Positions 13,118 to 47,763 of a stretch of 64,000 nucleotides of DNA are shown here, in pieces. Below the pieces are notes generated by a model. It had not been told where the DNA came from. It did no database searches and worked only from the letters and a program-made list of their open reading frames with translations. A program made the translations under genes and the position numbers. The stretch's first letter is position 1; each line of letters opens with the position of its first letter. The stretch comes from Deltaproteobacteria bacterium (lineage in GTDB: Bacteria; Myxococcota_A; Polyangia; DRWM01; JAAZOP01). The stretch covers positions 40,779-104,778 of the forward strand of contig JACRCZ010000048.1 of NCBI GenBank assembly GCA_016218765.1, read 5' to 3'.

Positions 13118-13238
13118 GAGACTGGGCGCTCGTTCCGCCACGGCGGTGACGAGCGGCAATTGACGACGCGGGGGAACGCCGCCGGCATCGCGCCGACGTG
13201 GCCCAACGTCCGACACGCGGTGGTCGAAACGGCGTACC

Positions 13239-14507: not shown

Positions 14508-14518
14508 GTCCCGCGGGA

Positions 14519-15382: not shown

Positions 15383-15422
15383 TCCGGGGGCGATGCGCTT
15401 CTATCGTCCGACGGGGGCGAAG

Positions 15423-16994
15423 TCAAGAAGGCGGGGGCTCGCGCAACGCGGCCCAGAACCCGCCGGAGTCCTCGGGACGCATCGGCTGCAGATAGCCGGC
15501 GTAGGCGGGCAACGCGGAGAGCTTCAGCGCCAGGCTGCGCAGGCCGCCCACGTCGCCCGCCCAGCCGTCGGGCTCGAAAGCCTGCACCAGCGCATCGCCG
15601 AAATCGTCCGGCGGGTAGTCCGGCCACTGCCGGTCGAACCGGTCCCGCAGGCGCAGGAGAAGATCGCGCGCGTCGGAAAGGCGGCCGAACCAGTGCTCCC
15701 ACGCGGTGCTCGCCTGCGTCTGGGAGAGCCCGCACGCGGCCACGAGCACCTGGTACGACAGGCCATCCGCCTGGCGCTCCTGCGCCAGGTGGTAGTTCGC
15801 CACGCCGGCCAGCGCCTCGTGCCCGCCCCAGCGCCAGAACATGGAGCGCTCGACGTCCGACAGCGTTCGCACGGCGTCGATCCAGTTCGCCCGCGAGTCG
15901 CGCGACGCGGGAGGCAGATGCAGGTTCACGTACGCCTTCTGCAACGCGTGCGTCAGCTCGTGGTACACGGTCTGCCGCAACGACACGTCGCGGCAGCCAC
16001 GATGCCACTCGCGCAGCGCCTCCGCTTCGTCCGGCTCCGGACCCAGGAGCTTCGCGTTGCGGCACAGCTCCGAGCCGTTCCAGACGTCCGCGCCGTGCAC
16101 GCCGAGGACGAGGCGGGAGTAGTCCTGCTCCATCGTCGATTCGTCGAGGACGAGCGGCTCGGTCGCGGTCGGATCGGCGTCCGGGTCGTTGTCCGCAAAG
16201 TACTTCATGCGTTCGGCGGTGCCGGGCAGCACGCGGTCCAACTCGGCCAGGTACTCCTCCCGGACGCCGCGGTCGCGCAGGAACGCGACGTACTCCCCGC
16301 GCGCGCGGAGGATCTCCGCCTGGACCTGGGCCGCGGCCTCCTCCGAGACGTAGACCGGCTCCCACTCCGCGGGCACGGTGAGGTCCCGACCCTTGCGCTC
16401 CTCGTCGGCGACCATGCGGTGCACCTCGCGAGCCTCGAAGTCGCCGGCGCGAAGCGGCAGGGGATCGCCCCACGCGCCGTTCCAGGCCTTCGCTTCGAGC
16501 GCGTCGAGCGCCATCGACATGAGGTGCAGCTCGTTGAGCACGACCTGGCGTGCGGTCGCCGCGGGGATGGCGTCGCGATGGAAGCGTTCGGCGCAAGAGC
16601 CGGGGCCCGAGAGGTCGGCGAGGACCGCGACGGGTGGGGGAGGCGGCGCGGCGTCCGCCGGGTCGGCGTCCGGACCGTCGCCGCTCGCCTCCGTGGCGGG
16701 GGGAGGCGTCGCGGCGTCCGGCAGCTCGGGGGCAGCGGCATCCAATGCGGCGGCGGGCGACTCCGCCGGCGATGCCGCCGGCGCGTCACGCGTCGGCGGG
16801 GACGGCGAGCCCGCCTGGCGCGGCGATCCGGACTGTCCCTTGCAGGAAAACGCGGGCAGTCCGACGGCGATGCACAGGCCGAACGCGGCGGCCGCGGCCC
16901 GTATCGTCCTTCCCCATCGGTGTCCATCGGTGGGGAGGTGGTGCGGTAGAGCGGTGGAGCGGTGGTGCGGTGAGGAGGTGGTGCGGTGGTTCAT
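15423..16994 (-). CDS. Lipoprotein zinc metallopeptidase (HExxH: HELTHA)
   Basis: The ATG at 16994 has a GGAAGGAA SD. A lipobox (LPAFSC) follows a 30-residue N-terminal region rich in His, Pro and Arg. The upstream part of ORF 15423..17675 was rejected. Confidence 0.6.
   Translation of the reverse strand: MNHRTTSSPHHRSTALPHHLPTDGHRWGRTIRAAAAAFGLCIAVGLPAFSCKGQSGSPRQAGSPSPPTRDAPAASPAESPAAALDAAAPELPDAATPPPATEASGDGPDADPADAAPPPPPVAVLADLSGPGSCAERFHRDAIPAATARQVVLNELHLMSMALDALEAKAWNGAWGDPLPLRAGDFEAREVHRMVADEERKGRDLTVPAEWEPVYVSEEAAAQVQAEILRARGEYVAFLRDRGVREEYLAELDRVLPGTAERMKYFADNDPDADPTATEPLVLDESTMEQDYSRLVLGVHGADVWNGSELCRNAKLLGPEPDEAEALREWHRGCRDVSLRQTVYHELTHALQKAYVNLHLPPASRDSRANWIDAVRTLSDVERSMFWRWGGHEALAGVANYHLAQERQADGLSYQVLVAACGLSQTQASTAWEHWFGRLSDARDLLLRLRDRFDRQWPDYPPDDFGDALVQAFEPDGWAGDVGGLRSLALKLSALPAYAGYLQPMRPEDSGGFWAALREPPPS
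16912..16990 (-). repeat. Composite short tandem repeats inside the 5' coding end of the metallopeptidase gene: 2 decamers CACCGATGG[A/G], then an 8-bp GGT[G/A]GAGC-type array
   Basis: The plus strand reads ccccatcggtgtccatcggtgggg, then ggtggtgcggtagagcggtggagcggtggtgcggtgaggaggtggtgcggtgg. Confidence 0.6.
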
Positions 16995-17912: not shown

Positions 17913-18010
17913 GTCTGGCTGGTGGCTGGTAGCTGGTAGCTGGTAGCTGGTGGGGGAAGCTGGCGGCTGGTGGCGCTACCGGCTACGAGCTACGAGCTAC
18001 GAGCTGATAC
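17913..18010. repeat. Heptamer tandem arrays, (RGCTGGT)x8 then (CTACGAG)x3, between convergent genes
   Basis: The arrays are read directly from the sequence. The crotonase TAG and the ACAD TAG are both embedded in the arrays. Confidence 0.7.
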
Positions 18011-22899: not shown

Positions 22900-25800
22900 A
22901 TGCGTGCACGCGTTTCGCGGTCGACTGCGCTTGGTGTGTTCTGGGTTTGCGCGGCGGTGACGGCGGTCGGGTGCGCGACGGGAACGGGGTCGCCGGCGGA
23001 CGCGGAGGCGGGGGAAGCGGTGGAGGGCGGCGACGGGGGGGAGGAGATCGAGGGAGGGGAGGAGGAGGGGGACGGCGACGGGGGCGGGGGCGAGATCGAA
23101 GGGGAGACGGACGCCGGGGACGAGGGGGAGGCGGGGGACGACGCGGACGTGGGCGGGGAGACCGGGTGCTCGAGCGTGGAGGAGTGCGACGACGGGATCG
23201 AGTGCACGGTGGACTCGTGCGACCCGCGGGACGGGATGTGCAAGCACGAGGCGTTGCACATGGCGTGCGACGACGGCAATCCGTGTTCGGGTGCGGAGAC
23301 GTGCGACGTGGTGCTGGGCTGCATGCCCGGGACGCCGGTGGACTGTTCGGACGAGTTCGACTGCACGGTGGACGCGTGCGACGCGTTGACGGCGGAGTGT
23401 CGTCACACGCCGAGCCACGCGTTGTGCACGGAGCCGCAGATCTGCGATCCGGCGCGGGGCGGGTGTGCGGATCCGCCGACGTGCGCGAGCGACGTCGACT
23501 GCGACGACGACGACGACTGCAACGGTGTGGAGACGTGCGGGCCGGGGTTGTTCTGCGTTCCGGGTGCGGCGGTGGTGTGCGACGACGGGGTGAGCTGCAC
23601 GGTGGACTCGTGCGACCCTGCGGGCGGAGCCTGCTCGTTCACGCCCAACGACGCGGCGTGCGCGGACGCGGACCTGTGCAACGGGGACGAGGCGTGCGAC
23701 CCGGCGGCGGGGTGCGGGCCCGGGGTGCCGGTGGACTGCGACGACGGGGTCGGCTGCACGGAGGATTCGTGCACGCCGGCGACGGGGCGGTGCCGCAACG
23801 CGGCGGACGACGCGCGTTGCGACGACGGGGTGCTGTGCAACGGCCAGGAGATCTGCGACGTGCGGTCGGGCTGTGCGGCGGGGACGCCGCCGGCGTGCAG
23901 CGACGGCATCGCGTGCACGGACGACCGGTGCAATCCCGGGACGGACCGGTGCGTGAACACGCCGAACGACGCGCCGTGTTCGGACGGGTCGTTCTGCAAC
24001 GGGGCCGAGGTCTGTTCGGCGGTGACGGGCTGCGGGGCGGGGACGGCGCCGGTGTGCAGCGACGGCATCGCGTGCACGACGGACGCGTGCGACCCGGCGG
24101 CCGGGGGCGGGGCGGGGGCGTGCGTCTCGACGGCGCCGGATCGCGACCGTGACACGTATGCGGACGCGGCGTGCACGGGGACGGACTGCGACGACCTGGA
24201 CGCGGCGGTGCATCCCGGTGCGGCGGAGAGCTGCAACGCGATCGACGACGACTGCGAGGGCGGGACGGACGAGACGTTCGCGTGCGTGCGCGGGACGACG
24301 ATGTCGTGCAGCACGAGCTGCGGCTCGGCCGGCACGCAGCTCTGCTCGAACACGTGCGCCTGGGGCGCGTGCACGCCGCCGGCGGAGACGTGCAACGGGT
24401 TCGACGACGACTGCCTGGCGGGCTGCGACAACGGCTGGGAGTGCTGCCGGGGCGAGAGGCGCTCGCAGAGCTGCGGGTTCTGCGGGACGCAGGAGCGTTC
24501 GTGCGGCGCGACGTGCGCGTGGGGCTCGTGGGGGGCGTGCACGGGGGCGGGCGAGTGCGCGGCGGGGGGTACGGAGACGCGGGCGTGCACCTGCGGCGGC
24601 ACGGAGTCGCGGACGTGCGGCTCGGGCTGCGCCTGGGGCGCGTGGAGCGGGTGTGCGGCGGGGGCGTGCACGCCGGGGGCGACGCAGTCCTGCACGACTT
24701 CGTGCGGCACGACGGGCCTGCAGACGTGCTCGGCCACCTGCTCGTGGGGTGCCTGCACGCCGCCCGCGGAGGTCTGCAACGGCACGGACGACGACTGCGA
24801 CCTGACGTGCGACGACGGGGTGGGGACGTGCTGCCGGGGTGCGACGGAGACGGCGAGCTGCGGGGCGTGCGCCACGCAGACGCGCACGTGCAACGCGAGC
24901 TGCGGCTGGGGCGCGTGGGGCTCGTGCACGGGCGGCGGGGTCTGCACGCCGGCGGCGACGGAGACGCGGGCGTGCACCTGCGGCGGGACGGAGTCGCGCA
25001 CGTGCCTGGGCACGTGCCTGTGGGGTGCGTGGAGCGGCTGTGCCGCGGGGGCGTGCACGCCGGGGTCGAGCCGCTCGTGTGCGACGGGGTGCGGGTCGAG
25101 CGGCACGGAGCTGTGCACGGCGAGCTGCACGTGGAGCGGGACGTGCGTTCCGCCGGCGGAGACGTGCAACGGGGCGGACGACGACTGCGTGGCGGGTTGC
25201 GACAACGGGGTGGGCGAGTGCTGTCGGGGCGGAACGCAGAGCCAGAGCTGCGGCTTCTGCGGGACGCAGACGCGCTCGTGCGGGGCGACGTGCGCCTGGG
25301 CCGCGTGGGGCTCGTGCACGGGCGGCGGCGTGTGCGCGGCGGGCTCGACGGAGACGCGCGCGTGCGCGTGCGGCGGGACGGAGTCGCGCACGTGCAGTCC
25401 GTCGTGCGCGTGGGGGGCGTGGAGCGGGTGCGGAGCGGGCTCGTGCACGCCGGGCACGACGGGCTCCTGCACGACGTCGTGCCTGTCGACGGGCACGCGG
25501 CTGTGCCAGGCCGACTGCACGTGGGGCCCGTGCAATCCGCCGTCGGAGTCGTGCAACGGGGCCGACGACGACTGCGACCTGCTGTGCGACGACGGGATGG
25601 GCACGTGCTGCCGCGGCGCGACGGAGTCGCAGGCCTGCGGGTACTGCAGCACCGGGACGCAGTCGCGGAGCTGCGGAGCGACCTGCACGTGGGGCGGGTG
25701 GAGCGCGTGCGTGGGCGGCGGCGCGTGCTCCCCGGCCTCGTCGCAGGCGTGCAGCAACTCGTGCGGCGCGGCCGGCACCCAGACGTGCTCGGCCGGCTGT

Positions 25801-26643
25801 GCGTGGGGCACCTGCTGCGCGGCGGCGGAGGTGTGCGGCAACGCGTGCGACGACGACTGCGACGGCTCGACGAACGAAGGGTGCTCGTGCACGGGCGACA
25901 CGTGCGCCTGCCCGCTGACGGTGGCAGGCGCGGGCGGGACGTACACGGGGACGACGTCCGGGATGGCGAACAACACGTCGGGCACGTGCGCTTCGTCGGC
26001 GTGTCCCGACGTGGTGTACTCGTTCACGCCGTCCACGACGGGCACGTGGGCGATCGACACGAACGGCTCGGCCTTCGACACGGTGCTGTACGTGCACTCG
26101 GGCGGCTGCCCGGGCACGCAGCTCGCGTGCGACGACGACAGCGGGAGCGGGAGCCAGTCGCGGGTGCTGGTGAGCCTGACGGCGGGAACGACGTACTACG
26201 TCTTTGTCGACGGCTACAACGGCCTCTTCGGCTGCTCGTCGGGGGCCTACACGCTGCACGTCTACCTGAGCGTGAGCGGCGGAGACACGTGCGCGGCGGC
26301 GCCGGCGATCTCGGGGGCGGGGAGCTGGGCCGGCGACACCTGCGCGCTGGCTTCCGACTACGCCGGCTCCTGTGCCGGCAGCGGCGGCAACGACGCGGTC
26401 TTCGCCTGGACGGCGCCGTCGGCGGGGACGTGGAACTTCGACCTCCAGTACTCGGCCTTCGACACCTCGCTCTACGTGCGCTCGGCCACATGCACGGGCA
26501 CGGAGATCGACTGCGACGACGACTACTGGGGCGTGGCCGGCGCTTCGTACTTCAGCGCGAGCCTCTCGGCCGGCCTGTACTACGTCTTCGTCGACGGGTA
26601 CGGCAGTGGGGACTGCGGGGCGTACCAGCTGGATATTTATTAG
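22900..26643 (+). CDS. Very large exported lipoprotein made of Myxococcus-type cysteine-rich repeats and MopE-like metal-binding motifs, with two C-terminal PPC-like (pre-peptidase C-terminal) domains
   Basis: The signal peptide/lipobox is MRARVSRSTALGVFWVCAAVTAVGC. An acidic linker follows. There are many C..D..C..C repeats and CxxDDDC motifs, and the C-terminus carries SAFDT.LYV...C.......D modules. Start chosen at an internal ATG with an upstream GGAGG-like RBS. Confidence 0.7.
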   Translation: MRARVSRSTALGVFWVCAAVTAVGCATGTGSPADAEAGEAVEGGDGGEEIEGGEEEGDGDGGGGEIEGETDAGDEGEAGDDADVGGETGCSSVEECDDGIECTVDSCDPRDGMCKHEALHMACDDGNPCSGAETCDVVLGCMPGTPVDCSDEFDCTVDACDALTAECRHTPSHALCTEPQICDPARGGCADPPTCASDVDCDDDDDCNGVETCGPGLFCVPGAAVVCDDGVSCTVDSCDPAGGACSFTPNDAACADADLCNGDEACDPAAGCGPGVPVDCDDGVGCTEDSCTPATGRCRNAADDARCDDGVLCNGQEICDVRSGCAAGTPPACSDGIACTDDRCNPGTDRCVNTPNDAPCSDGSFCNGAEVCSAVTGCGAGTAPVCSDGIACTTDACDPAAGGGAGACVSTAPDRDRDTYADAACTGTDCDDLDAAVHPGAAESCNAIDDDCEGGTDETFACVRGTTMSCSTSCGSAGTQLCSNTCAWGACTPPAETCNGFDDDCLAGCDNGWECCRGERRSQSCGFCGTQERSCGATCAWGSWGACTGAGECAAGGTETRACTCGGTESRTCGSGCAWGAWSGCAAGACTPGATQSCTTSCGTTGLQTCSATCSWGACTPPAEVCNGTDDDCDLTCDDGVGTCCRGATETASCGACATQTRTCNASCGWGAWGSCTGGGVCTPAATETRACTCGGTESRTCLGTCLWGAWSGCAAGACTPGSSRSCATGCGSSGTELCTASCTWSGTCVPPAETCNGADDDCVAGCDNGVGECCRGGTQSQSCGFCGTQTRSCGATCAWAAWGSCTGGGVCAAGSTETRACACGGTESRTCSPSCAWGAWSGCGAGSCTPGTTGSCTTSCLSTGTRLCQADCTWGPCNPPSESCNGADDDCDLLCDDGMGTCCRGATESQACGYCSTGTQSRSCGATCTWGGWSACVGGGACSPASSQACSNSCGAAGTQTCSAGCAWGTCCAAAEVCGNACDDDCDGSTNEGCSCTGDTCACPLTVAGAGGTYTGTTSGMANNTSGTCASSACPDVVYSFTPSTTGTWAIDTNGSAFDTVLYVHSGGCPGTQLACDDDSGSGSQSRVLVSLTAGTTYYVFVDGYNGLFGCSSGAYTLHVYLSVSGGDTCAAAPAISGAGSWAGDTCALASDYAGSCAGSGGNDAVFAWTAPSAGTWNFDLQYSAFDTSLYVRSATCTGTEIDCDDDYWGVAGASYFSASLSAGLYYVFVDGYGSGDCGAYQLDIY

Positions 26644-26690
26644 AGCGGTGGAGCGGGGGAGCGGCAGGGGGGAAGAGCGGGGGGGATTGG
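26643..26690. repeat. GGT[G/A]GAGC-family repeat copy plus G-tracts
   Basis: The sequence is GAGCGGTGGAGCGGGGGAGCGGCAGGGGGGAAGAGCGGGGGGG, directly after the stop of the Cys-rich repeat gene. Confidence 0.5.
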
Positions 26691-26691
26691 G

Positions 26692-28899
26692 TCAGGGGTC
26701 GAGGGTGGCGGCGAGGCCGGAGGCGCCGGCGAGGATGCCGCGGCCGTTGGGGGTGAAGACGAGGCGGGTGCCGGAGGCGCCGGGGAGGGGCGGCGTGCGG
26801 ACGGGGGGATCGGACCACTCGGCGGAGGCGCCGATGGCGAGGCCGGCGCCGGAGCCGTCGAAGAGCTCGAGAGTGCCGTCGGGGAGGGTGCGGGCACCGA
26901 TGACGGTGAGGTCGTCGCCGGTGAAGCCGTATTGGGTCCAGCTGGCGCCGGCGTCGGTCGAGCGGTAGACGACGTTGGCGTTGACGAGCCAGGCGGTGTC
27001 GGCGCCGGACGAACCCAGCCAGTTGATCGTGAAGTAGGAGCGCGGGCCGGGGAGGCCGCCGCCATCGAGTTCGGCGAAGGTGCGGCCGTCGTCGGTGCTG
27101 CGCCAGAGGGCGCGACCGTCGGAGAGGAGGATCGTGGGCGAGGGGGCAGAGGGCAGGACGGCGAGCAGGCGCGGGGAGCGGCCCGCCGCGCCGGGCAGGG
27201 GGACGACGGTCCAGGAACGGCAGCCGTCGGCGGTGGCGAAGAGGCGGAGGCGAGAGGCGGCGAGGCCGTGGTCGTTGTCGAGGAAGTGCAGCATGGCGAT
27301 GCCGGGGTACGAGTAGTCGGTGGATTCGCCGGGCAGGTCGAGCGGCAGGCCGGTGGAGCGTTCCTCCCAGGTGGCGCCGCCGTCGTCGCTGGCGACGACG
27401 TGTCCCCACCTCGTGCCGAGGCGAATGTGGGTCGCGTCGGGAACGGCCACGGCGGACCACCCAAGGAACGCCTCCTCGTAGCCGTCCGTGACGGGAGGGA
27501 GGTTGACCTCGACGTCGGACCAGGTCTCGCCGAGGTTGCGCGAGAGGAGGACGGAGGTTTGGCCGGCGGCCACGGCGAGTGAGCCGGCGACGGCCAGGTC
27601 GGAGAGGTGGGGTGTGGGCCCGTCGTTCGCGGAGACCCAGCGATCACCCTCGGCGCGGTAGATGCGACCGCCGTAGCCGACGCCGAGAGCGTGGTCGAGG
27701 TCCCGGACGGCGAGGTCGCGGCCGTCGGGGTTGGATTCGCTGCCGGGGACCGGTCCGGGGAAGGGGCCGCCGAACCAGGTCTTGCCGTCGTCCCAGGTGC
27801 AGCGCACGCGGCGCAGGCGCTCGTCGGGCACGCAGAGGTCGGCGGGGCCGGCGGGAGGAGCACCGGGCGTTTCGGTCCAGGCGCCGGCCGTCTGCCAGGT
27901 TTCGCCGCCGTTGGTGGTGGTTTCGAGGGGCGCGTTGGTCTCGGGGACGAAGGCGTCGCCGCCGAGCGCGACGCCCGACGCGTCGTCGGCGAAGACGGCG
28001 AAGCGGACGTAGCGTTCGAAGAACGTGCGCGGATCGAGCCACGAGGCGCCGCCGTCGTCGCTGCGGCGAATGAACCCCGTGTGGTCGACGGCCATTCCCT
28101 CCGCGCCGGGAGTCGTCACGGGCATGTGGCGAAGGTCGAACCAGCCGCCGCCGACGAAGGCGCGCGTTTCGGTGGCGAAAGCGAAGGCGTCGGCGCGGCC
28201 GGGGAGGGGACCGACCATCGTCAACGTCGCGCCCTCGATGCGCTCGAGGAAGTTGGTGACCACCCAGGAGCGTTTCCAGCGGTCGACGAGGATGCGGCCG
28301 GAGGGGCCGCGCTGGAAGGTCGAGCCGTCGCCGCCCCAGGCGCGTTCAGGCGACGGCGTCGCGATCGTCTCCCACGCACTGCCGTCGGCGCTACGCAAGC
28401 GGGTGCCGTCCTTGCTGGCAAGCCAGATGACGCCGTCCGAGGCGCGGCCGACGGCGATCCAGTCGGCCGTGGAAGGAACGTCGACGAGGTCCCAACTCGC
28501 GCCGGAGTCGGTGCTGCGGACGACGGCGCCGCCGTAGCCTGCGGCCCAGGCCTCGGAGTCGGAGAACCATTCGACGGCGACGAGGGTCTGCAGGGTGGGG
28601 CCGGGATTGCGCACCAGCCAGCCCGGGGATGGAGCCGCACCTCTTCCCGGGCCTGAAGGCCCGGGCTGCACCCCCAAGCCCGCGTCGCGGGCTGAGGAGG
28701 AATCCGCTTCCGGGGGCGAGACCCCGGGCGGGACCACGAAGCCCGCTTCGCGGGCTGACGAGGAAGGGAGACTCTCTCCGGAGTGGTCGGTGACGGACGC
28801 GGGGGCGCGGGCGCGGCAGCCGGGGAAGGTCGCGGCGAGGAGCGCAAGCAAGGCAGTGATGCGCGCGAGGGACCGATCGCGGGCTGGTTGGGTTCTCAA
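26692..28899 (-). CDS. Exported BNR/Asp-box repeat (sialidase/sortilin-like beta-propeller) lipoprotein
   Basis: There are more than 8 Asp-box motifs of the form S-x-D-x-G-x-x-W (STDSGASW, SDDGGASW, TTNGGETW, SDDGGATW, STDAGASW...). A TTG start at 28899 gives the signal peptide MRTQPARDRSLARITALLALLAATFPGC. The ORF-track start at 29019 is an alternative. Confidence 0.6.
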   Translation of the reverse strand: MRTQPARDRSLARITALLALLAATFPGCRARAPASVTDHSGESLPSSSAREAGFVVPPGVSPPEADSSSARDAGLGVQPGPSGPGRGAAPSPGWLVRNPGPTLQTLVAVEWFSDSEAWAAGYGGAVVRSTDSGASWDLVDVPSTADWIAVGRASDGVIWLASKDGTRLRSADGSAWETIATPSPERAWGGDGSTFQRGPSGRILVDRWKRSWVVTNFLERIEGATLTMVGPLPGRADAFAFATETRAFVGGGWFDLRHMPVTTPGAEGMAVDHTGFIRRSDDGGASWLDPRTFFERYVRFAVFADDASGVALGGDAFVPETNAPLETTTNGGETWQTAGAWTETPGAPPAGPADLCVPDERLRRVRCTWDDGKTWFGGPFPGPVPGSESNPDGRDLAVRDLDHALGVGYGGRIYRAEGDRWVSANDGPTPHLSDLAVAGSLAVAAGQTSVLLSRNLGETWSDVEVNLPPVTDGYEEAFLGWSAVAVPDATHIRLGTRWGHVVASDDGGATWEERSTGLPLDLPGESTDYSYPGIAMLHFLDNDHGLAASRLRLFATADGCRSWTVVPLPGAAGRSPRLLAVLPSAPSPTILLSDGRALWRSTDDGRTFAELDGGGLPGPRSYFTINWLGSSGADTAWLVNANVVYRSTDAGASWTQYGFTGDDLTVIGARTLPDGTLELFDGSGAGLAIGASAEWSDPPVRTPPLPGASGTRLVFTPNGRGILAGASGLAATLDP

Positions 28900-29090
28900 C
28901 TTACACCTCGTCGGCGATGGACACCGCCCGCGGGCGGTGCTTGGTCGAATGGTATCCCACCCTTTGCGTCCTTTGCGGTTCTTTGCGCCCTTTGCGCGAG
29001 CTTCGGGACCATGGATCATGTTCTCCCCGCAGCCTTCAAATTGGGATTGACACGTCCGTCCGTATCGTTTATATACGTAGTTGTGGATGG

Positions 29091-32809: not shown

Positions 32810-34300
32810 CTACGGCGCGGGGGGCCAGGAGACGCCGACGTAGATGGGGTTGGAGTAGACCCAGGCGTGGTCGACGACGTAGGTGTCGGCGCGGAGGCCG
32901 AGCCAGGGGCGGAGGTGTTCGGGGACGATGCGCACGTCGGCGCGGTACACGCCGACGGGCGCCGCCGGCAGCTCGACGGTGCCCTGCCCTGTCGCGACTT
33001 CCATCCAGGTCCCGTCGTCGGAGCGGAGGATCCGTGCGGTGATCACCGGCTGCGGGCCGTCCGGGTCGAGCTTGCTGACGGTGGGGGCGACGACGCGCAG
33101 GACGACGGTCTCGCCGGCCGGGACTTCGTCCCCCATTTCGTAGAACGTTCCGGCGGCTTCGGCGTGGAAGTCGAACCCGACGGGGTATCCGAGGTAGTCG
33201 AAGCCGCCGTAGAGGCGGCCGCGGCGGATGGCGTCCTTGAGCGCAACGTCGTCGACCGCGCCCGCGGGGAGCAGCACGTAATTGGAGAACCAATGCGTGA
33301 GGCGGCGGAAGGAGTCGATCCGCTCGCCATCGGGGCTGGTCCCGTTGAAGGTGTTGCGGTGGACGTCGGTGGCCAGGACGCCGGCGGAGCGGCGGATCGC
33401 GAGGGCCCTGGACCAGCGGAGCAGGTCGGCGTCGTTCTCGCGCCAGATGGGCACGAGGCCGAGCTCGGGCACGGGGACGCGGCACGGCGCCCGGCGCAGC
33501 TCGGTCAGGAGGCTCAGCGCTTCCGCGATGCCGTCCTCCAGGTTGAAGTGCAGGTTGTAGATCTCGAAGCCGTCGAGCGGCATGGCGAGCAGCTCCTCGA
33601 CGGGCCAGCCTTCGGTGTGCTGGACGAGGGCCACGGCGCCGGCGGCCTTGAGCGCCTCGATGCCGGCGGGCGTGGTGTCATTGTAGTTGTCGTGGCGTTC
33701 GGCCGGCGTGTCGCCGACGTGGTGTTCGAGGCCGATGGGCATCGAGCCCTGCTCGGTGCCCGCGGCGATGATGATCTCGCGGCCGTCGGGGCAGGCCATG
33801 CGGTTGGCGACGGGGTTGCCGTCGCGCTCGATGAGGGTGTCGCCGGGGGCGTAGAGCAGGATGTCGGGAAACTCGTGGTCGGCGAAGAGGGTGGCGTGGT
33901 CGGTGAGGAAGGCGAAGTCCTGGCCGGTGTCGCAGAGGGCCTGGCGCAGCTGCTGGAAGCACTCTTCGTTGCGCACGCCGTCGGTGAACGGCTCGTTGTC
34001 GCAGCCGTCGTGGGAGTAGGGCGAGTGGATGTGGATGATGCCGCGGCGGAGCTGCCAGTCCCGCGGGGCCGGGACCTCGGACGAAGGCAGGACGGCCCAC
34101 GGGTGGTAGAAGCGATCGTCGGCGAACTCCTCGCCGGGGGGCGAGTTGCAGACGAACGCCTCCGCCTCCTCGGTCACGTCGAGGGCGTCGACCGCGTCGG
34201 CGGCGACGTCGCCCGCGTCGCCGGAGCTTCCGGCCGGGCCGCAGGCGAGGAGGGAGAGGCAGGTGAGTCCGAAAACGGCACGATGTCCACGGTGCATCAT
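32810..34300 (-). CDS. Exported PHP-domain (polymerase/histidinol-phosphatase-like) phosphoesterase lipoprotein
   Basis: It starts at MMHRGHRAVFGLTCLSLLACG (signal/lipobox). RGIIHIHSPYSHDG matches the PHP motif-I pattern. The N-terminal extension in the ORF track encodes an intergenic repeat and was rejected. Confidence 0.6.
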   Translation of the reverse strand: MMHRGHRAVFGLTCLSLLACGPAGSSGDAGDVAADAVDALDVTEEAEAFVCNSPPGEEFADDRFYHPWAVLPSSEVPAPRDWQLRRGIIHIHSPYSHDGCDNEPFTDGVRNEECFQQLRQALCDTGQDFAFLTDHATLFADHEFPDILLYAPGDTLIERDGNPVANRMACPDGREIIIAAGTEQGSMPIGLEHHVGDTPAERHDNYNDTTPAGIEALKAAGAVALVQHTEGWPVEELLAMPLDGFEIYNLHFNLEDGIAEALSLLTELRRAPCRVPVPELGLVPIWRENDADLLRWSRALAIRRSAGVLATDVHRNTFNGTSPDGERIDSFRRLTHWFSNYVLLPAGAVDDVALKDAIRRGRLYGGFDYLGYPVGFDFHAEAAGTFYEMGDEVPAGETVVLRVVAPTVSKLDPDGPQPVITARILRSDDGTWMEVATGQGTVELPAAPVGVYRADVRIVPEHLRPWLGLRADTYVVDHAWVYSNPIYVGVSWPPAP

Positions 34301-34360
34301 GACGGGATAGTACGTCGTGACGGGCGACGATGCCACGGAGAGGCGGCGCGACTCACGCGA

Positions 34361-34395
34361 GCGCTCCACCGCTCCACCGCTCCACCGCTCCACCC
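34361..34395. repeat. (GCTCCACC)x4 tandem octamer array upstream of the PHP lipoprotein gene
   Basis: The sequence is gcgctccaccgctccaccgctccaccgctccaccc. It lies about 60 nt upstream of the ATG at 34300 on the minus strand. Confidence 0.65.
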
Positions 34396-35638: not shown

Positions 35639-37351
35639 TCAACGCGAGATCACGAGCCAGGACGTGAGATCGATGTTGGCGCCGCTGCCGGTGTACGGTG
35701 CGCCGCCGTAGTCGGCGCGGTATTCGAAGGTGTTGTCGGCGCCGAGGACGACCTGGTCGGTGACGTCGAGAGAGACGATGGGGACTTCGCGTCCCGGGCA
35801 CCAGCCCGAGCGGCCGTACCACCAGGTGCCGTACTGGTTGGGGACGGTGCCCTGGCCGGTCTGTTGCATGCAGTCGTCGTCGGTGCCGGCCTGGGGGAAG
35901 CTGCGGACGTTGTCGGTGCCGTTGACGAGGTAGTGGTGGTTCACGTTGCAGAACTCGGCGCAGTTGCCGAGGTCGGCCATGCCGTGGCCGGAGAGGACGG
36001 TGGCGATCTCGACTTTCGCGGCGTCGGCGGGCACGGGGAGGGTGATGGCGGGGTGGGCGGTGTCGTAGTCGGCGGTGAGGGCGCCGCCGGAGAAGAGGTA
36101 CACGGCCTGCTCTGGGCGCACGGGCTTGCCGGCATCGGAGAAGCGCAGGTCGAGCGTGGTCTCGTAGGGTTGCTGCGAGTAGAAGGCGAAGCGGCGGCTG
36201 CCGCCGTCGCCGAGGAGCGGGAGGAGGGCGCTGGCGTCGTGGACCCAGCGGCCTTCGCGGTGGTAGGTGGTGATCCAGCGGCCGAGCTCGACGTCGCAGA
36301 TGTCGGGATCGGATTCGTCGCAGAGGTAGAGCGAGTTGATGTAGTCCCAGGCCGGGCAGTCGCCGTACTCGCCGTCGCCGACGCAGCCGAGGTAGAGATC
36401 GAGCTCGAGGGTGTCGAAGCCGGCCATGGCGGCGGCGTCCGGGAGGTCGACATCGATCGTGGTGCGGGCGCCGGCCCAGCCCGGATCGGAGACGACCTCG
36501 CCGGCGAGGAGGTGGACGACGGTGGCGTCTTCGGCCTGCAGGGCCGCATCGCGCTCGGCCTCGAAGTTGTAGTAGACGGCCTCGTTGGCGGCCATGGAGA
36601 GGTTGGGTGCGAACCAGCCGCGGCCGGCGTCGTAGCGGGCGAAGTCGGCGTAGGAGCCGATGAAGCGGAGGCGCTGGAAGCGGTCGATGGCGACGCCCCA
36701 GCCGGGGGAGATCATCTGGGCGCCCAGCCAGCCCGGCAAGCCGCTGGCACGGCCGGGCAGGTAGTGGATGCGGCCCGTCCACCACGCGCGATCGTCCTCG
36801 CTCATTGCGCCCAGGGCGGTGTCGACGCGGCCTTGCAGGGCGGTGAGCGACTCGTTCCGGACGACGGGGGCGCCGTGGGTGGAGACGAAGAAGTAGTGGA
36901 CGTTGCGCGGCGAGCGGGCGAGGAGGGTATTGACGTCCCGTTCCCAGATGCCTCGCGTCCAGCCGGACTCCTGCTGCGGGGTATCCTGGATGAAGAGGTA
37001 GACGTCGCATCCGCTCCAGGCTGCGGAGAGGGTCCACGTGCCGTCCCAGGTCTCGAAGGAGACGTCGGCGGCGACGGCGTAGAGGGCGGGGTCGTCCGGG
37101 GCATCGATGAACTCGCGCACGGGCAGGCCGAGGGTGGTGCAGGGATCCGGGGGGGATGTCTCAGCCTCGGCGTCACCCTCATCGGCAATCTCGGGTTCCG
37201 CGTCGGCTTCCGCTTCCGCCTCGGCGTCCGGCTCCGCGTCGGTGGCGTCATCGACATCGGCGGCATCGGCGTCGGGCTGGGAGGAGTCGCCGCCGTTGCA
37301 GGCGGCCGCGGCAAGGAAGGCCAGAGCGGAGATCCATGGGATGGCTCGCAT
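35639..37351 (-). CDS. Exported hypothetical lipoprotein with an acidic D/E/A-rich linker
   Basis: The signal is MRAIPWISALAFLAAAACNGG. It is followed by DADAADVDDATDAEPDAEAEAEADAEPE. The ORF is 570 aa and no confident family was found. Confidence 0.55.
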   Translation of the reverse strand: MRAIPWISALAFLAAAACNGGDSSQPDADAADVDDATDAEPDAEAEAEADAEPEIADEGDAEAETSPPDPCTTLGLPVREFIDAPDDPALYAVAADVSFETWDGTWTLSAAWSGCDVYLFIQDTPQQESGWTRGIWERDVNTLLARSPRNVHYFFVSTHGAPVVRNESLTALQGRVDTALGAMSEDDRAWWTGRIHYLPGRASGLPGWLGAQMISPGWGVAIDRFQRLRFIGSYADFARYDAGRGWFAPNLSMAANEAVYYNFEAERDAALQAEDATVVHLLAGEVVSDPGWAGARTTIDVDLPDAAAMAGFDTLELDLYLGCVGDGEYGDCPAWDYINSLYLCDESDPDICDVELGRWITTYHREGRWVHDASALLPLLGDGGSRRFAFYSQQPYETTLDLRFSDAGKPVRPEQAVYLFSGGALTADYDTAHPAITLPVPADAAKVEIATVLSGHGMADLGNCAEFCNVNHHYLVNGTDNVRSFPQAGTDDDCMQQTGQGTVPNQYGTWWYGRSGWCPGREVPIVSLDVTDQVVLGADNTFEYRADYGGAPYTGSGANIDLTSWLVISR

Positions 37352-37459
37352 GAGGGCGCGTATAGCACGGAACGAGGCGTGCGGACGAGCGGACGGGGGG
37401 GAAGCGAGCGGACGAGACGACCGCTCGGCCGCTCGGCCGCTCGACCGCTCGCCCGTTGG

Positions 37460-38530
37460 TCAATAGAGCGTGTCGTCGGGGTGGGTGGCGAGGAGCTCAT
37501 CGATGCGTGCGAGGGCCTGCTCGCGGCGGTCGAGGACGGCGCCGACGATGTCCTCGTCCAACGTGGCGCCCTGGAATTCCCGGGTGAGCAGGGCACGGAG
37601 GGTGTCGGGGTCGAGATTGCGGAGGCTGTCGACGAGGGTTTGGGGGAAGACCTTGATGCGCCAGAGCCAGCGGCGGCACTGGACGTCGCGGCCGGAGGGG
37701 TTGTAGAGCGAGTCGCCGAAATCGATGGCGACGAGGAGCTGGGAGTCGGAATCGGGGAAGCGGACCGAGCCGACGTTGTGCGGGCGATCCTCGTTGAAGA
37801 CGAGGAAGTCGAGGAGGAAGACGGCGGTGAGATCCTGGAGCGGCTGCGAGGCGGCCACCCAGTCGCGGTTGTTCGGTCCCATCCAGCCGGTGAGCTTGTC
37901 GAAGGTCTCGGGCAGCGAGGCGAGCGGTCCGATCTTGAACTGGAACTCGGGGACCCAGTAGGTGAAGGAGCCGCAGGCGCGGGTCTCGTCGCCCTCCCCT
38001 TCCCAGGTCACCAGCTCGGCGACCTCGGCCGGCTGATCGGCGAGGCCGACGTCGAGGATGGAACGGGGGAAACAGCGGTCGACGGTCGGGGTGAGACGGA
38101 TGCCGAGGGCGCGGCCGAGGCGGTAGGAGAAGATCTCGCCGACCCAGTCGCGGTAGTTCTGCTGCTTGACCTTGAGGAGGCCCTCGATGGTGCCGCCGTC
38201 CGGGGTGGAGAGGGTGACGCGGAAGCGCACCTTGGGTCGGACGCCGCGCTCGTAGGTGGCCTTGACGAGGAGGCGGCCGTCGTCGCCGGCGGCCACGGTG
38301 TCGCCGCGGAGGAGCTGCTCGGTGGCGTCGAGGTTCCGGAGGCGTTCGATGGTGGACGCGTCGGCGGTCGTTTGGTCGTCGGGGGGGGAGAGATCCGGGG
38401 GGTCGGCGAGGGCGGAGTGAGGATGGGCGAGGCAGGCAAACACGGCGGCAAGGGCCGCTACGGCGCGAGTGTTCGGGAGGGCTGCGAGGCGCGGAAGGTG
38501 GGAACGGGAGTGGGCGGTTGGGGACGGCAT
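37460..38530 (-). CDS. Secreted atypical protein-kinase-like protein (Fam20/four-jointed-like catalytic segment)
   Basis: A signal peptide is present. The segment LLDFLVFNEDRPHNVG...LVAIDFGDS resembles the DFLxGNxDRHH catalytic loop plus DFG of Fam20-type kinases. This assignment is from memory and is hedged. Confidence 0.5.
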   Translation of the reverse strand: MPSPTAHSRSHLPRLAALPNTRAVAALAAVFACLAHPHSALADPPDLSPPDDQTTADASTIERLRNLDATEQLLRGDTVAAGDDGRLLVKATYERGVRPKVRFRVTLSTPDGGTIEGLLKVKQQNYRDWVGEIFSYRLGRALGIRLTPTVDRCFPRSILDVGLADQPAEVAELVTWEGEGDETRACGSFTYWVPEFQFKIGPLASLPETFDKLTGWMGPNNRDWVAASQPLQDLTAVFLLDFLVFNEDRPHNVGSVRFPDSDSQLLVAIDFGDSLYNPSGRDVQCRRWLWRIKVFPQTLVDSLRNLDPDTLRALLTREFQGATLDEDIVGAVLDRREQALARIDELLATHPDDTLY

Positions 38531-38674
38531 CGGCGACCTTTCTTGGCGCGGAGGCTACAACGGGGCGATCCGGGCGGCAACGAGCGCGCGCCGTGGGTCA
38601 CGGACGGATGGGGGAATGGAAAATGCAAAAATGCAATGAAAAATGAAAAACGACTCGGCGGGGGAGGCGCGGCG

Positions 38675-40129: not shown

Positions 40130-40350
40130 GGTCGGACCCCTTCCCTCCCCGGCGGCGGGGACGGGAGGGATCATAGCGCCAATTGCGAGGGAGATCGTGC
40201 AGAATGCGGTGGTGGGGGGCGCGTCCAAGGCCGGCACGAAGGCCGCGGGGAGGAGCGCGAAAGCGGATTTCCCTTCGACTTCGCTCAGGGCAGGCGCGCA
40301 GCGGCCGCAAAGGACCGCAAAGGACGCAACGGGGGGGAGGAGCGGGGACG

Positions 40351-41590: not shown

Positions 41591-42691
41591 ATGGGTGCGA
41601 TGGAGCCGGACGGCACCACGCCCGATGAAGCCGCGGCCACACCGGTGGGCGGCGCGACCGCGGCGCCGGGGCCGGTCCGCGAGTCGCTGGATGCGACTCC
41701 GGAGCGGACGCTGGCGCGCGTGCGGTACGTGGTGCGCTGGACGGTCATCGCGGCGACGCTGGCCGCGGGTCTTGCGTTCGCCGCGGGCGTCGCATCGGAC
41801 GTGGTGCGGCCGTGGCTCTACGGCTTCCGGCCGTGGTGGGTGTCGCCGGCGGGGTACCGGTTCCTCGGACCGCAGCCGCCGCTGGTGTGGCTGGTCGCCG
41901 GGCTGCTGGTCGGGGCGGGGGTCGGCGTGGCGGCGGCGATGGGCGTCGGGCGCCGGCGGTGGTTTCGCGTCGCGGGGGGAGCGGCGGGAGCGGTCGGCCT
42001 GGCGCTGCTCGTGCTGACGGCGGTCGATGTGGCGCGGTTCGGCGTCGGCGGACCGGGTGGACTCGCGGCGGTGCCGTGGGACGTCTTCACGGGTTCGATC
42101 GCGATGACGATCGCGGGCTCGCTGGCGGCGTTGGGACGCCTGGGGGAGCCGCCTCGCGCGCGGCTGTGGCGCTGGATGCCGGTTCCGGCCGCGGTCGTGC
42201 TGGCGTTGGGCGTGGGGTATCCGACGATCTCGGACGTGTGGACGTGGTACCGGCCGCAGGACCTGCGGTCGTTCCATGCCGAGCTGGTGCGGGCACGAAG
42301 GACGTACTCCGCCGAGGTCGTGGGGGAGTCGCGGGACGTCGTCGAGGCCAACGGCGTGCTCTACCGTCTGGATCGCAGCGATACGATGCGACTGACGCCG
42401 GACGACGTGTCGCGGGTGATCTGGTTCCCGCCCGAGGACGGCGACGACCGCCCGTCGGTGGGCATCCGGCTGCGGTCCGGGCTGCACGGGGATCTGGCGC
42501 GGCGGAGCGAGCGTGGGATGCGGCAGTACGGGGCGTGGGACAGCGACGCGCTGTTCATCGACGGGCGCCTGTACCTGGTGGCGTCGTACCAGGGTCTGCT
42601 CCTGGACGGCCGGATGTCCGTGCGGGCGGGCGAGACGGACGGGGAGCTGCGCGAGCTGTACGCGGCGTTGACGGGGGAGGAGGCGCCGTGA
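41591..42691 (+). CDS. Integral membrane protein (about 5 TM) with a C-terminal soluble domain
   Basis: Hydrophobic segments are present. The ATG is an internal Met of ORF 41321..42691. Confidence 0.5.
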   Translation: MGAMEPDGTTPDEAAATPVGGATAAPGPVRESLDATPERTLARVRYVVRWTVIAATLAAGLAFAAGVASDVVRPWLYGFRPWWVSPAGYRFLGPQPPLVWLVAGLLVGAGVGVAAAMGVGRRRWFRVAGGAAGAVGLALLVLTAVDVARFGVGGPGGLAAVPWDVFTGSIAMTIAGSLAALGRLGEPPRARLWRWMPVPAAVVLALGVGYPTISDVWTWYRPQDLRSFHAELVRARRTYSAEVVGESRDVVEANGVLYRLDRSDTMRLTPDDVSRVIWFPPEDGDDRPSVGIRLRSGLHGDLARRSERGMRQYGAWDSDALFIDGRLYLVASYQGLLLDGRMSVRAGETDGELRELYAALTGEEAP

Positions 42692-42693
42692 AG

Positions 42694-42723
42694 GGAGCGG
42701 TGGAGCGGTAGAGCGGTAGAGCG
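42694..42723. repeat. GGT[G/A]GAGC-family tandem repeat upstream of an exported-protein gene
   Basis: The sequence is GGAGCGGTGGAGCGGTAGAGCGGTAGAGCG. It starts 3 nt after the stop at 42691 and lies about 55 nt upstream of the ATG at 42779. Confidence 0.65.
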
Positions 42724-42778
42724 TCAGGGCGGGCGGTCGGCTTGATCGGCCTCGCTCCGGTTGGTAGCGTCACGAACC

Positions 42779-43417
42779 ATGAGAACTGCAATCGTGGTCG
42801 TGGTCGTTCTGCTGGCGTCGGGATCTTGCTGTTCGCATCCGGGTCCGGGGTCGTGTCCGTCGTGTCCGGCCTGTCCACAGGCGGGGACGGAGGCCGGGGC
42901 GGCGGCGACGCCGGCGACGTTCACGGACAACCAGGGGACGGCGGTGACGTTCGAGCTGGGCGCCCGCGCCTTCGCGGACCGCATCGTTTCGGCCGAGCCG
43001 GGCGATCCGGCGCGCACGGCCGCGGGCTGGACCGATCCGGCCGCGGCGCTCGCGGTGCCGGACTACCACGGCGAGCATGACGAGCCGCCCACGGCCGTGA
43101 CGCTCGGCTGCGGCGGCGTCCTGGTCGTCGAGTTCACCGACAACGGGCTCGTCGACGGGCCGGGCGCCGACCTGCACGTGTTCGAGTGCGGGCCGGACGT
43201 CGAGGCGATGCACATCGCGATCAGCGTCGACGGCACGAGTTGGACGGAGGTGGGCGACGTGCGCGGCCAGCCGGCGCAGGTCGACCTCGCGGCCGTGGCC
43301 GCACCGGATGTCTCGTACCGTTTCGTCCGCATCACGGACCTCCGCGATTCCTGCAGCTCGACGTTTCCCGGTGCGGACATCGATGCCGTCGGAGCGATCC
43401 ACGCCGTGGCGCTCTGA
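42779..43417 (+). CDS. Small exported protein
   Basis: MRTAIVVVVVLLASGSCC is a signal peptide. The ORF is 213 aa. Confidence 0.5.
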   Translation: MRTAIVVVVVLLASGSCCSHPGPGSCPSCPACPQAGTEAGAAATPATFTDNQGTAVTFELGARAFADRIVSAEPGDPARTAAGWTDPAAALAVPDYHGEHDEPPTAVTLGCGGVLVVEFTDNGLVDGPGADLHVFECGPDVEAMHIAISVDGTSWTEVGDVRGQPAQVDLAAVAAPDVSYRFVRITDLRDSCSSTFPGADIDAVGAIHAVAL

Positions 43418-43464
43418 CCCGGCGGGCGCCGACGTCGAGGATCCCAAGGAGGTAGACGGGTCGC

Positions 43465-44715
43465 GTGGAACCGCTCGTTCCGGCTGCCGAAACCCCCCTG
43501 CTGCTCGCCATCCTTGCCGCGTGCGCGGCGGGAGCGCTGTGGGCGGAGGAGCGGTTCGCCTTCGCGCGCAAGGTGACGGCGTTCATGGTGGCGCTCCTGG
43601 CGGGGATGGCGCTGTCGAACGCGCGCGTCATCCCGGCGGACGCCCCGGCTCTGGACCTCGTGTGGGCTTGGGTGGTGCCGCTGGCGCTGCCGCTGCTGCT
43701 GGTGCGCGCGAATCTGGTGCGCATCTTCCGCGAGACCGGCCCGACACTGGGCGCCTTCCTGGTCGGCGCGCTCGGGACGGTGCTCGGTGGGTTCGTGGCG
43801 GCGTGGCTGGTGCCGGTGGGACCGGAGTCGTGGAAGGCGACGGGGGTATTCGTCGGCACGTACATCGGCGGATCGATCAACTTCCTGGCGATCTCGCGGG
43901 CGACCGAGCTTTCGCCGGGCATCTCGTCCGCGGCCATCGCGGCGGACAACCTGGTGATGACGTTGTACTTCTTCGTGCTGATTGCGGCGGCGCGGTCGGC
44001 GCGGTTGCACCGGTGGTTCTCGCGGGACCGCACAGGCGGGGTCCAGCGTCCGGGCAAGCCCGAGCAGCCGCGGGCTGAAGCCCGCGGTTCGGAAACCAAG
44101 GAGCCGCAGGCGACGGTGGGCGGTCCGGTGCCGGCACGGTCCGGCGGGTCGGAGCCGCCGCAGGCCGAGCCGCGCGGTACGGAGACGCAGCGCCCGCCGG
44201 CGACGGTGGTAGGCCTGGCGACGTCGCTGGCCTTTGCGTTCGGAACGGTCGCGACGGGCACGCTGCTGGCGCGGGTGGCGGGCACGCCGCACCTCGTGGC
44301 GCTGTTCATCACGGGGCTGGCCGTGGCGGTGGCGACGATCTTCCCGCGGCATCTGGGGGAGCTGCCCGGCGCGGAGGAGCTGGGGGTGTTCCTGATGCAC
44401 GTGTTCGCGGTGGCGCTGGGCGCCGCGGCGGAGGTGCGGACGATCGTGGAGCGCGGTCCGCTGTTGTTCGCGATGGCGGCGACGATCATCGCGGTGCACA
44501 TGGTGTTCCTGTTCGGGGTCTGCCGGGCGCTGCGGCTGCCGCTGCCGGAGACGATCGTGGCGTCCAACGCGAACATCGGCGGCCCGACGACGGCCTCGGC
44601 CTTCGCCGTCGCCGTGCACTGGGAGCGGCTGGTGCTGCCTGCCGTGCTGGCCGGCGTCCTTGGCTACGTCATCGCGAACTACATCGGGCTGGGCGTGGCC
44701 TACGCGGTGCGGTGA
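43465..44715 (+). CDS. Polytopic membrane protein (DUF819-like)
   Basis: A GTG start has AGGAGG 12 nt upstream. There are about 10 TM helices and a central charged loop. Confidence 0.6.
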   Translation: MEPLVPAAETPLLLAILAACAAGALWAEERFAFARKVTAFMVALLAGMALSNARVIPADAPALDLVWAWVVPLALPLLLVRANLVRIFRETGPTLGAFLVGALGTVLGGFVAAWLVPVGPESWKATGVFVGTYIGGSINFLAISRATELSPGISSAAIAADNLVMTLYFFVLIAAARSARLHRWFSRDRTGGVQRPGKPEQPRAEARGSETKEPQATVGGPVPARSGGSEPPQAEPRGTETQRPPATVVGLATSLAFAFGTVATGTLLARVAGTPHLVALFITGLAVAVATIFPRHLGELPGAEELGVFLMHVFAVALGAAAEVRTIVERGPLLFAMAATIIAVHMVFLFGVCRALRLPLPETIVASNANIGGPTTASAFAVAVHWERLVLPAVLAGVLGYVIANYIGLGVAYAVR

Positions 44716-44723
44716 CCGCTCTC

Positions 44724-47630: not shown

Positions 47631-47763
47631 CGGGGTTCCTCCGTCCGGCAAGCGTACCGGGCGGGGGGATTCCGCGCAATGAAGGCCGCGGGGTAAGGGC
47701 GAGCCGGAGTTCGCGCAAAGGGCGCAAAGGGACGCAAAGGGCGCAAAGAGGGGGGGCGGGGCT

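Follow-up and report, generated by a model that had tools for sequence, protein, structure and literature searches.

Dispersed tandem arrays of the octamer GGTRGAGC in a G+C-rich Myxococcota-type genome may be long simple-sequence repeats of unconstrained intergenic DNA

Octamer arrays and the genes around them

The DNA analyzed here, referred to as the window, is a 64-kb stretch with a G+C content of 71%, in which four tandem arrays of the octamer GGTRGAGC are found, by direct reading and by TRF, where a sequence-only reading of the same DNA had put them. Array A (16928 to 16990, plus strand) consists of about eight degenerate GGTRGWGC units (GGTGGTGC, GGTAGAGC, GGTGGAGC and similar), array B (26643 to 26664, plus strand, with a G-rich degenerate tail reaching 26690) of the units GAGCGGTG and GAGCGGGG, array C (34362 to 34394, minus strand) of four perfect copies of GGTGGAGC, and array D (42695 to 42723, plus strand) of 3.6 copies of GAGCGGTR. 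TRF assigns them a period of 8, 2.8 to 7.9 copies and 76 to 100% matches. The units follow one another head to tail, with point variants and degenerate edges, as uninterrupted copies well within the 11-nt unit limit of simple and long simple-sequence repeats (SSRs and LSSRs), and array length and unit variants differ from locus to locus. The two-unit pattern, with at most one mismatch, occurs 9 times in the window where shuffled sequence predicts 0.02, and the looser core GAGCGGNNGAGCGG occurs 20 times against 5.0 expected, a number that none of 100 shuffles reached. Length and frequency thus exceed what composition predicts, and the family is, as had been proposed, a non-random, dispersed and intergenic set of tandem repeats. 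Abundant single-copy seeds were rejected as the cause of the shared unit; the single-copy octamer ranks only about 2000 among 30,000 octamers in the window.

Genes were called by codon-position G+C likelihood and corrected by homology and by eye. The arrays take up the entire gap available to them, with B, C and D beginning 0 to 3 nt past the stop codon of the upstream gene. Array B lies between convergent genes, as originally described, filling the gap between a gene for a Cys-rich secreted protein (22900 to 26643, plus strand) and a BNR-repeat gene (26692 to 28899, minus strand); the TAG of the former (26641 to 26643) abuts the array, inside a degenerate unit-like octamer, ATTAGAGC, just ahead of the first full unit; the BNR-repeat gene has its stop codon at 26692 to 26694. 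The gene for the Cys-rich protein, at which the G+C-based caller had wrongly chosen the antisense frame, contains internal coding repeats of 387 bp (x3.5) and 159 bp (x2.2), and its product matches the MopE metal-binding motif and Dicty_CTDC repeats in Pfam. Array C abuts the TAG (34397 to 34395) of a gene for an MFS transporter; 61 nt separate the end of the array from the ATG (34300, minus strand) of a conserved hypothetical lipoprotein that is 100% identical to HY907_06160 and has homologues from Myxococcota/Polyangia MAGs. Array D starts 1 to 3 nt past the TGA (42689 to 42691) of a hypothetical gene and ends 55 nt before the ATG (42779) of a 212-aa lipoprotein with no Pfam match. Arrays C and D both have the G-rich strand in the sense direction, and each is followed by a gene whose product carries a lipoprotein signal peptide, in agreement with the claim that two arrays sit in the sense orientation about 55 to 60 nt upstream of exported-protein starts. 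The adjoining genes are functionally unrelated, encoding the conserved hypothetical lipoprotein, the 212-aa lipoprotein and, at array A, an enoyl-CoA hydratase, and array B has no downstream gene.

Arrays C and D, together with several arrays of other units, end 55 to 69 nt before the next start codon. Downstream of array D (42742 to 42781, plus strand) we read a putative promoter composed of TTGATC (42742 to 42747), a 17-nt spacer and TAGCGT (42765 to 42770), followed after 8 nt by the ATG. Given that this segment is near-identical in a close relative, it probably is the promoter of the lipoprotein gene, with the ATG 8 nt past the -10 element, and would give rise to a leaderless mRNA. Downstream of array C (34298 to 34312, minus strand), TACTAT (34312 to 34307) stands 6 nt ahead of ATGATG (34300 to 34295) with no Shine-Dalgarno sequence, and we infer a leaderless start there as well. 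The promoters were read by eye, with comparative support for that after array D only, and a strict sigma-70 consensus scan of 28.5 to 48 kb found no promoter. Measured against the predicted -35 hexamers, arrays C and D end some 20 to 26 nt further upstream. Several lipoprotein genes lack a Shine-Dalgarno sequence and have, 6 to 9 nt ahead of the start codon, a -10-like hexamer (TAGCGT, TACTAT, TATACG, TACCAT or TAGACT), an arrangement that implies leaderless mRNAs; the sites are 42742 to 42781, 34298 to 34312, 37351 to 37370 and 57760 to 57800 in the window, and 9968 to 10003 in the related locus L107.

Array A differs in that it lies in a divergent intergenic region, ending 97 nt before the ATG of the enoyl-CoA hydratase gene (17088). 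The sequence-only reading had placed one array inside a 5' coding region, and this is true of the deposited annotation, in which the minus-strand lipoprotein HY907_06100 (P0121, 523 aa) starts at ATG 16994 and reads through array A, the array and its flanks being in frame over 63 nt (21 codons). The roughly 24 residues that the array thereby adds to the N terminus are missing from all five homologues, each of which begins 5 to 10 residues ahead of the hydrophobic core, so the coding use of array A looks accidental. Between 16905 and 16994 (minus strand) no canonical in-frame start adjoins the signal peptide; the sole canonical in-frame start is the one upstream of the array, 26 codons up. An ATG in the last copy of an adjacent 10-mer repeat is one base out of frame at a GGGG run, and were this run three G long, it would provide a textbook start, MGRTIRAAAAAFGLC... 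Most likely, therefore, the apparent 5' coding status of array A is the accident of a one-base frame problem, which itself may reflect a mistake in assembly, a frameshift of the kind seen in pseudogenes, or a phase-off state. A plus-strand open reading frame that ends in array A (15393 to 16949) was dismissed as an arginine-rich antisense artefact without homology to the proteins of the neighbours. If they are ordinary repeats, arrays of this kind can mislead annotation pipelines, one of them having been translated here as a 24-residue extension of a lipoprotein.

A search with the repeat core and TRF revealed two further arrays that had not been listed before. The first (37381 to 37455) is an inverted pair built on the GAGCGG core (GAGCGGAC / GAGCGGYC), with four copies of GCGGACGA on the plus strand and 4.4 copies of GAGCGGYC on the minus strand. 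On the minus strand it forms a stable predicted hairpin directly past the stop codon of the gene at 37460 to 38443 and upstream of an N-glycanase-like lipoprotein gene, with a folding energy of -62 kcal/mol and z = -3.5. The second (17916 to 17974, plus strand) is a 7-mer variant, GGTRGCT, that keeps the GGTRG core and lies where the genes for enoyl-CoA hydratase and acyl-CoA dehydrogenase converge. Between 16 and 64 kb of the window, few intergenic regions of appreciable size lack some tandem array with a 7- to 10-nt unit. By identical TRF criteria the 64-kb window holds 7 arrays, compared with roughly 17 in about 0.65 Mb from 80 more distant relatives; the lineage is unusually rich in arrays, with a density several-fold above that of these relatives.

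The other families comprise the 9-mer RCGCAAAGG (28961 to 28996, 40305 to 40329 and 47713 to 47748), the 10-mer CACMGATGGR (16914 to 16932, 55993 to 56021, 56044 to 56073 and 59275 to 59301), each copy of which contains an ATG and is often followed by a G7 run, the 8-mer GCGCAGAG (57701 to 57741), which is common to the close relative, and an A-rich 7- to 8-mer (38615 to 38650). All are intergenic, most of them 22 to 90 nt upstream of gene starts or just past stop codons. From about 16 kb onward the window shows a GC skew of +0.09 to +0.26 per 4 kb whatever the gene strand, and plus-strand runs of at least six G far exceed the corresponding C runs. In the first 16 kb (1 to 16000) the skew is about -0.03, the strong skew being absent; this part ends at a tRNA gene (15310 to 15382, minus strand) and looks like an integrated island.

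The sequence-only reading had proposed REP-like elements and had called for secondary-structure prediction. The RNA folds of arrays A to D with their flanks, on both strands where relevant, are no better than those of shuffled sequences (z from -1.3 to +1.2). None of the four contains a palindrome, which leaves them without the stem-loop of REP or BIME elements, and the flanks share only isolated 8-mers that match by chance, in place of a fixed consensus. The flanks likewise show no terminal inverted repeats or target-site duplications, the marks of a MITE, and in Rfam the sole match at the gathering threshold is a tRNA, the arrays having none even at E values up to 1. On these counts the REP-like proposal fails. 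Terminator-like sites, that is, a G+C-rich hairpin followed by a U-tract, are also absent from the arrays. Canonical intrinsic terminators as a whole stand at chance level between 28.5 and 48 kb (5 found against 4.7 expected from shuffles). For array C a long-range stem is predicted with the end of the MFS coding sequence, which is rich in C (z = -2.4, no U-tract). ViennaRNA predicts G-quadruplexes in arrays A, B and C, and none in array D with its GGTAG units; quadruplex formation, predicted for GGTGG and not for GGTAG units, was accordingly rejected as a unifying property. A tRNA origin of the unit was considered and dropped as well: GGTAGAGC matches the tRNA D-arm and GCTCCACC the 3' end of tRNA-Ala, and with no tRNA-like flanks a chance match is likely.

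Turnover among relatives and recurrence in other phyla

The most informative relative, GCA_016218815.1 (contig JACRCX010000025.1, locus L195), aligns with positions 42268 to 47664 of the window at 81 to 88% DNA identity, and its DUF819 protein is 89% identical. The gene upstream of array D is conserved there to its stop codon. Past the array, the promoter segment CGGCTTGATCGGCC...GGTTGGTAGCGTC...CCATGAGAACTGCA is near-identical in the two genomes, with -35, -10 and start codon all kept. Array D itself cannot be aligned; its position is taken by 3.1 copies of GCGCAGAG. Between the stop codon and the promoter of this junction the relative carries a 7.2-kb gene block that is absent from the window, with 3.8 copies of ACGCAGAG in the same orientation at the block's other junction. 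The block encodes DUF4215, beta-helix and FecR/PEGA proteins, an ECF sigma factor and a 403-aa protein, and is flanked by direct-orientation NCGCAGAG arrays (in the stretches 425 to 514 and 7576 to 7746 of L195). This arrangement suggests either that the block may have been inserted into an array or that arrays may form at rearrangement junctions. In L195 the orthologous upstream gene is also trailed by an array, of another unit, which lies 35 nt past the stop codon in a convergent setting with no promoter.

Other loci point the same way. The close relative shares unit families with the window at non-orthologous loci, GCGCAGAG occurring twice in L195 and GGTGGAGC as an array of four copies, together with a G10 run, in locus L052. 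The latter array is upstream of a lipoprotein gene in the orientation opposite to its flanking genes, and its C-rich strand follows the stop codon. The gene that follows array C has an orthologue in a more distant relative (L107, 68% protein identity), where 4.7 copies of AGTCGTG stand upstream of it, just past the upstream stop codon and 33 nt before a leaderless-looking start; in two others (L110 and L112) there is no array. The AGTCGTG array is identical across L107 to L109, our sole population sample, with no variation in copy number. Junctions that bear arrays in the window are only 17 to 31 nt long in L107, that corresponding to 17916 to 17974 measuring 17 nt. Taken together, these alignments show the arrays to turn over much faster than the neighbouring coding sequence and putative promoter, which argues against a regulatory site and in favor of unconstrained repeat DNA.

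With the GGTRGAGC unit alone as query, three exact tandem units were found at a minimum of 106 loci in a collection of species-representative genomes, in at least eight phyla, and once in a viral collection; given this query, the recurrence across phyla may carry ascertainment bias. The hosts among the matches listed are Streptomyces and other Actinobacteria, Gemmatimonadaceae, Chloroflexaceae and their relatives, Verrucomicrobia, Planctomycetes, Proteobacteria, Bacteroidota and Myxococcota. Several loci per genome occur in some MAGs, with up to six among the matches listed in one Gemmatimonadaceae MAG. At these loci (at least 106 listed) the arrays have 3 to 35 units, are almost all intergenic and share no flanks. 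Seen locus by locus, the arrays of the window do behave as slippage products restricted to this strain, the outcome that the sequence-only reading had set against its own proposal; the unit does not, recurring in the relative and in many phyla.

The position of the foreign arrays relative to genes is not random. Using gene calls that are a crude heuristic, we find that 29 of 109 gene 3' flanks have the array within 10 nt of the stop codon, as against 3 of 70 5' flanks at that distance (Fisher p = 9e-5; 106 matches listed), and convergent contexts outnumber divergent ones by 26 to 9 in the same set. Polarity is specific to the phylum. Among the matches listed, 16 of 19 co-directional contexts in Actinobacteria have the C-rich strand as sense strand, whereas it is the G-rich strand that follows the stop codon in Gemmatimonadota (13 vs 2) and in Chloroflexota (8 vs 0). 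A complementary, inverted array lies downstream of 7 of the 17 Gemmatimonadota arrays among the matches listed, and the four Gemmatimonadaceae pairs that were folded yield very stable hairpins (z from -3.2 to -6.5). In these four MAG loci (L012, L016, L047 and L098) an octamer array, a short spacer and a complementary array come directly past stop codons, often between convergent genes, with hairpins of 20 to 35 bp, and the pairs may be regarded as candidate bidirectional terminators built from simple repeats. The unit resembles Chi motifs, and a Chi- or KOPS-like polar sequence was tried and rejected: relative to local GC skew, orientation splits 57 to 48 over 105 loci (p = 0.44, among the matches listed), and array C opposes the strong skew of the window.

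Origin and possible function of the arrays

What, then, are these arrays? Arrays A to D are tandem, intergenic and unstructured and have no flanks in common. The reading that we prefer, and to which we assign a probability of roughly one half, is that they are octamer LSSRs, made by slippage and kept only in unconstrained gaps as non-coding spacer DNA. Arrays would be born and resized by slipped-strand mispairing, in a lineage carrying an unusually high load of them, and would survive only where no other constraint applies, that is, from a stop codon (or a divergent promoter) to the upstream edge of the next promoter, as spacer and not as a sequence-specific signal. In this reading we infer three things, namely that slippage generates the arrays, that they have no dedicated function, and that the promoters lie where we place them. 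The proximity to gene 3' ends and the excess of convergent contexts at the foreign loci fit the avoidance of promoters and ribosome-binding sites. If the arrays are ordinary LSSRs, they mark unconstrained intergenic DNA and by this delimit conserved leaderless promoters.

The same proximity to stop codons would be predicted by a rival reading, in which the arrays would serve the 3' end of the upstream gene, as elements that pause or terminate transcription or protect the 3' end of the mRNA. They could possibly act alone, as G-rich RNA with two-tetrad G-quadruplexes, or as one arm of a hairpin whose other arm is an inverted array or a C-rich coding sequence. The start of arrays B, C and D directly past stop codons speaks for this view, as do the array that trails the orthologous gene in L195, the stop proximity, convergent excess and polarity seen across phyla (106 matches listed), the inverted arrays of Gemmatimonadota, the stable hairpins of the four folded Gemmatimonadaceae pairs and of the pair at 37381 to 37455, the pairing of array C with the MFS coding end, the chance-level count of canonical terminators in 28.5 to 48 kb, by which something else must end transcripts, and the quadruplexes predicted in A, B and C. 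Its weight is reduced by the fact that A, B and D alone have no significant structure and D no predicted quadruplex, by array A, which lies in a divergent region away from any gene 3' end, and by the missing U-tracts after the arrays. Moreover, the unit at L052 follows a stop codon in the opposite, C-rich orientation, so that the orientation is not fixed even within the lineage, and proximity to stop codons is equally expected from the avoidance of constrained DNA. We regard a role at gene 3' ends as a tentative possibility that stays well short of likely.

Slippage in unconstrained DNA, our preferred reading, has to accommodate three observations that do not fit slippage from random seeds alone. 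One unit is common to between four and six arrays within 26 kb; unit families of the window recur in the close relative at non-orthologous loci (GGTGGAGC at L052, and GCGCAGAG at L195 as at window position 57701); and the same octamer is dispersed as arrays in at least eight phyla. In addition, the non-random orientation relative to transcription within phyla indicates that the arrays are seen by selection or by a process linked to transcription. It is conceivable, if rather doubtful, that GGTRGAGC and a few other unit families are maintained by a sequence-specific process and not by random slippage. Such a process could be recognition by a conserved component acting at gene 3' ends, in pausing, termination or protection of the mRNA end, or a templated or recombinational mode of copying. 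The shared unit repertoire, the cross-phylum octamer, the phylum-specific polarity and the Gemmatimonadaceae hairpins past stop codons are the parts of the data that point to it. If real, it would be relevant to the way in which G+C-rich bacteria that have few canonical terminators end or insulate their transcripts, and the arrays would represent a widespread, undescribed class of stop-codon-proximal elements, present in eight or more phyla with phylum-specific polarity and able to pair into hairpin terminators.

The sequence-only reading had also offered a shared regulatory motif, and the position of arrays C and D invites such a view. Here the arrays would be tandem sites for a regulator, located upstream of promoters and co-controlling genes for exported proteins, with each repeat family defining a regulon. 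In its favor, C and D are in sense orientation 61 and 55 nt before lipoprotein starts and a short distance upstream of the predicted -35 hexamers, arrays of other units occupy the same relative position, the close relative has the same unit families, and the order of array, G or C run and -10 element recurs. Conservation tells otherwise. The unit of array D is replaced by GCGCAGAG in L195 while the promoter is kept, AGTCGTG occupies the orthologous site in L107, and no array precedes the orthologues in L110 and L112, which makes sequence-specific regulation unlikely. Nor are the genes downstream functionally coherent. Array B, the array at 17916 and that at 460 to 489 of L195 lie between convergent genes with no promoter, the orientation is flipped in L052, the periods of 7, 8, 9 and 10 bp have no helical phase, and in other phyla the arrays avoid gene 5' ends (matches listed). 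We consider a regulon of this kind unlikely.

Less likely again are contingency loci, in which gain or loss of an 8-nt unit would switch genes for surface lipoproteins by frameshift or by a change of promoter geometry. Array A is in frame in HY907_06100, and a change of one unit would abolish translation from the sole canonical in-frame start, which is upstream of it; many neighbouring genes encode lipoproteins, and G and C runs adjoin the arrays. Yet C and D are upstream of the predicted -35, where a change in length should not alter the spacing of the core promoter, B lies between gene ends, and the homologues of HY907_06100 do without the N-terminal extension. No length polymorphism was seen in the L107 to L109 sample, which concerns another array, and the organism is a free-living groundwater bacterium and not a host-adapted pathogen. 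Phase variation is conceivable only for array A. An origin as mobile elements of the REP, BIME or MITE type, copied by a transposase, is highly improbable, since the occurrence of one unit at several loci per genome (on several contigs in other genomes) and the existence of inverted array pairs have to be set against the lack of conserved flanks, terminal inverted repeats and target-site duplications, the lack of a palindrome or stable fold in A to D, and array lengths and unit variants that differ at every locus. On balance the earlier interpretation is partly supported: the gene contexts had been described correctly, except for array A, for which the description holds in the annotation only.

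Comparison with known repeat systems

Comparison with repeats described in other bacteria places the arrays closest to the LSSRs. REP elements are imperfect palindromes of 20 to 40 nt with a conserved consensus. The arrays resemble enterobacterial REP and BIME elements in being dispersed, intergenic and often located just past stop codons, but A to D, as direct repeats, lack self-complementarity and a significant fold, and only the pair at 37381 to 37455 and the Gemmatimonadaceae array pairs form REP-like hairpins. The STRR heptamers of cyanobacteria, reportedly described by Mazel and colleagues in 1990, are a few families of short tandem repeats dispersed in the intergenic DNA of heterocystous cyanobacteria and common to related genomes. 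They differ in their 7-nt unit, their hosts and their unrelated unit sequences; with an 8-nt unit in a Myxococcota-type MAG, only the organization of the present arrays is analogous.

Phase-variable SSRs of host-adapted pathogens, such as those of Moraxella uspA1/uspA2 (PMC4679880), offer another comparison. As far as that paper's account of them goes, the arrays are similar in that a repeat stands between the upstream region and the start of a surface-protein gene, and in that an annotated lipoprotein start reads into array A in frame. They differ in that neither the core promoter nor the 5' UTR contains C or D, and in that the organism is an environmental bacterium.

The class to which the arrays conform in most respects is that of the prokaryotic LSSRs, with units of 5 to 11 nt (Mrazek, Guo and Shah 2007, as cited in PMC4679880 and PMC4060949). 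In the terms in which those two papers present the class, LSSRs share with our arrays uninterrupted copies of a unit (7 to 10 nt here), a length greater than expected by chance, a mostly intergenic location when the unit is not a multiple of 3, and a phylogenetically patchy distribution, and they are credited to polymerase slippage. What these accounts describe is a class, and within them there is no octamer dispersed both genome-wide and across phyla, and no adjacency to stop codons. A search of the searchable literature found no GGTRGAGC repeat.

The closest published parallel for the dispersal of one unit is the TAACTGA heptamer of marine Beggiatoaceae, Cyanobacteria and Bacteroidetes (MacGregor 2015, PMC4679880). 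There, too, a short unit forms many small tandem sets (2 to 6 copies) in the intergenic DNA of one genome, the downstream genes are unrelated, and the same unit occurs in distant phyla with no evident mechanism of transfer (PMC4679880). The TAACTGA sets, in contrast, lie a few nucleotides from start codons, in forward orientation and over the ribosome-binding site, whereas the GGTRGAGC arrays are G+C-rich octamers that end 55 to 97 nt upstream of start codons and abut stop codons. The simplest account is that the arrays belong to the LSSR class, with a unit that is itself without a match in the searchable literature and with the TAACTGA repeats as their nearest counterpart.
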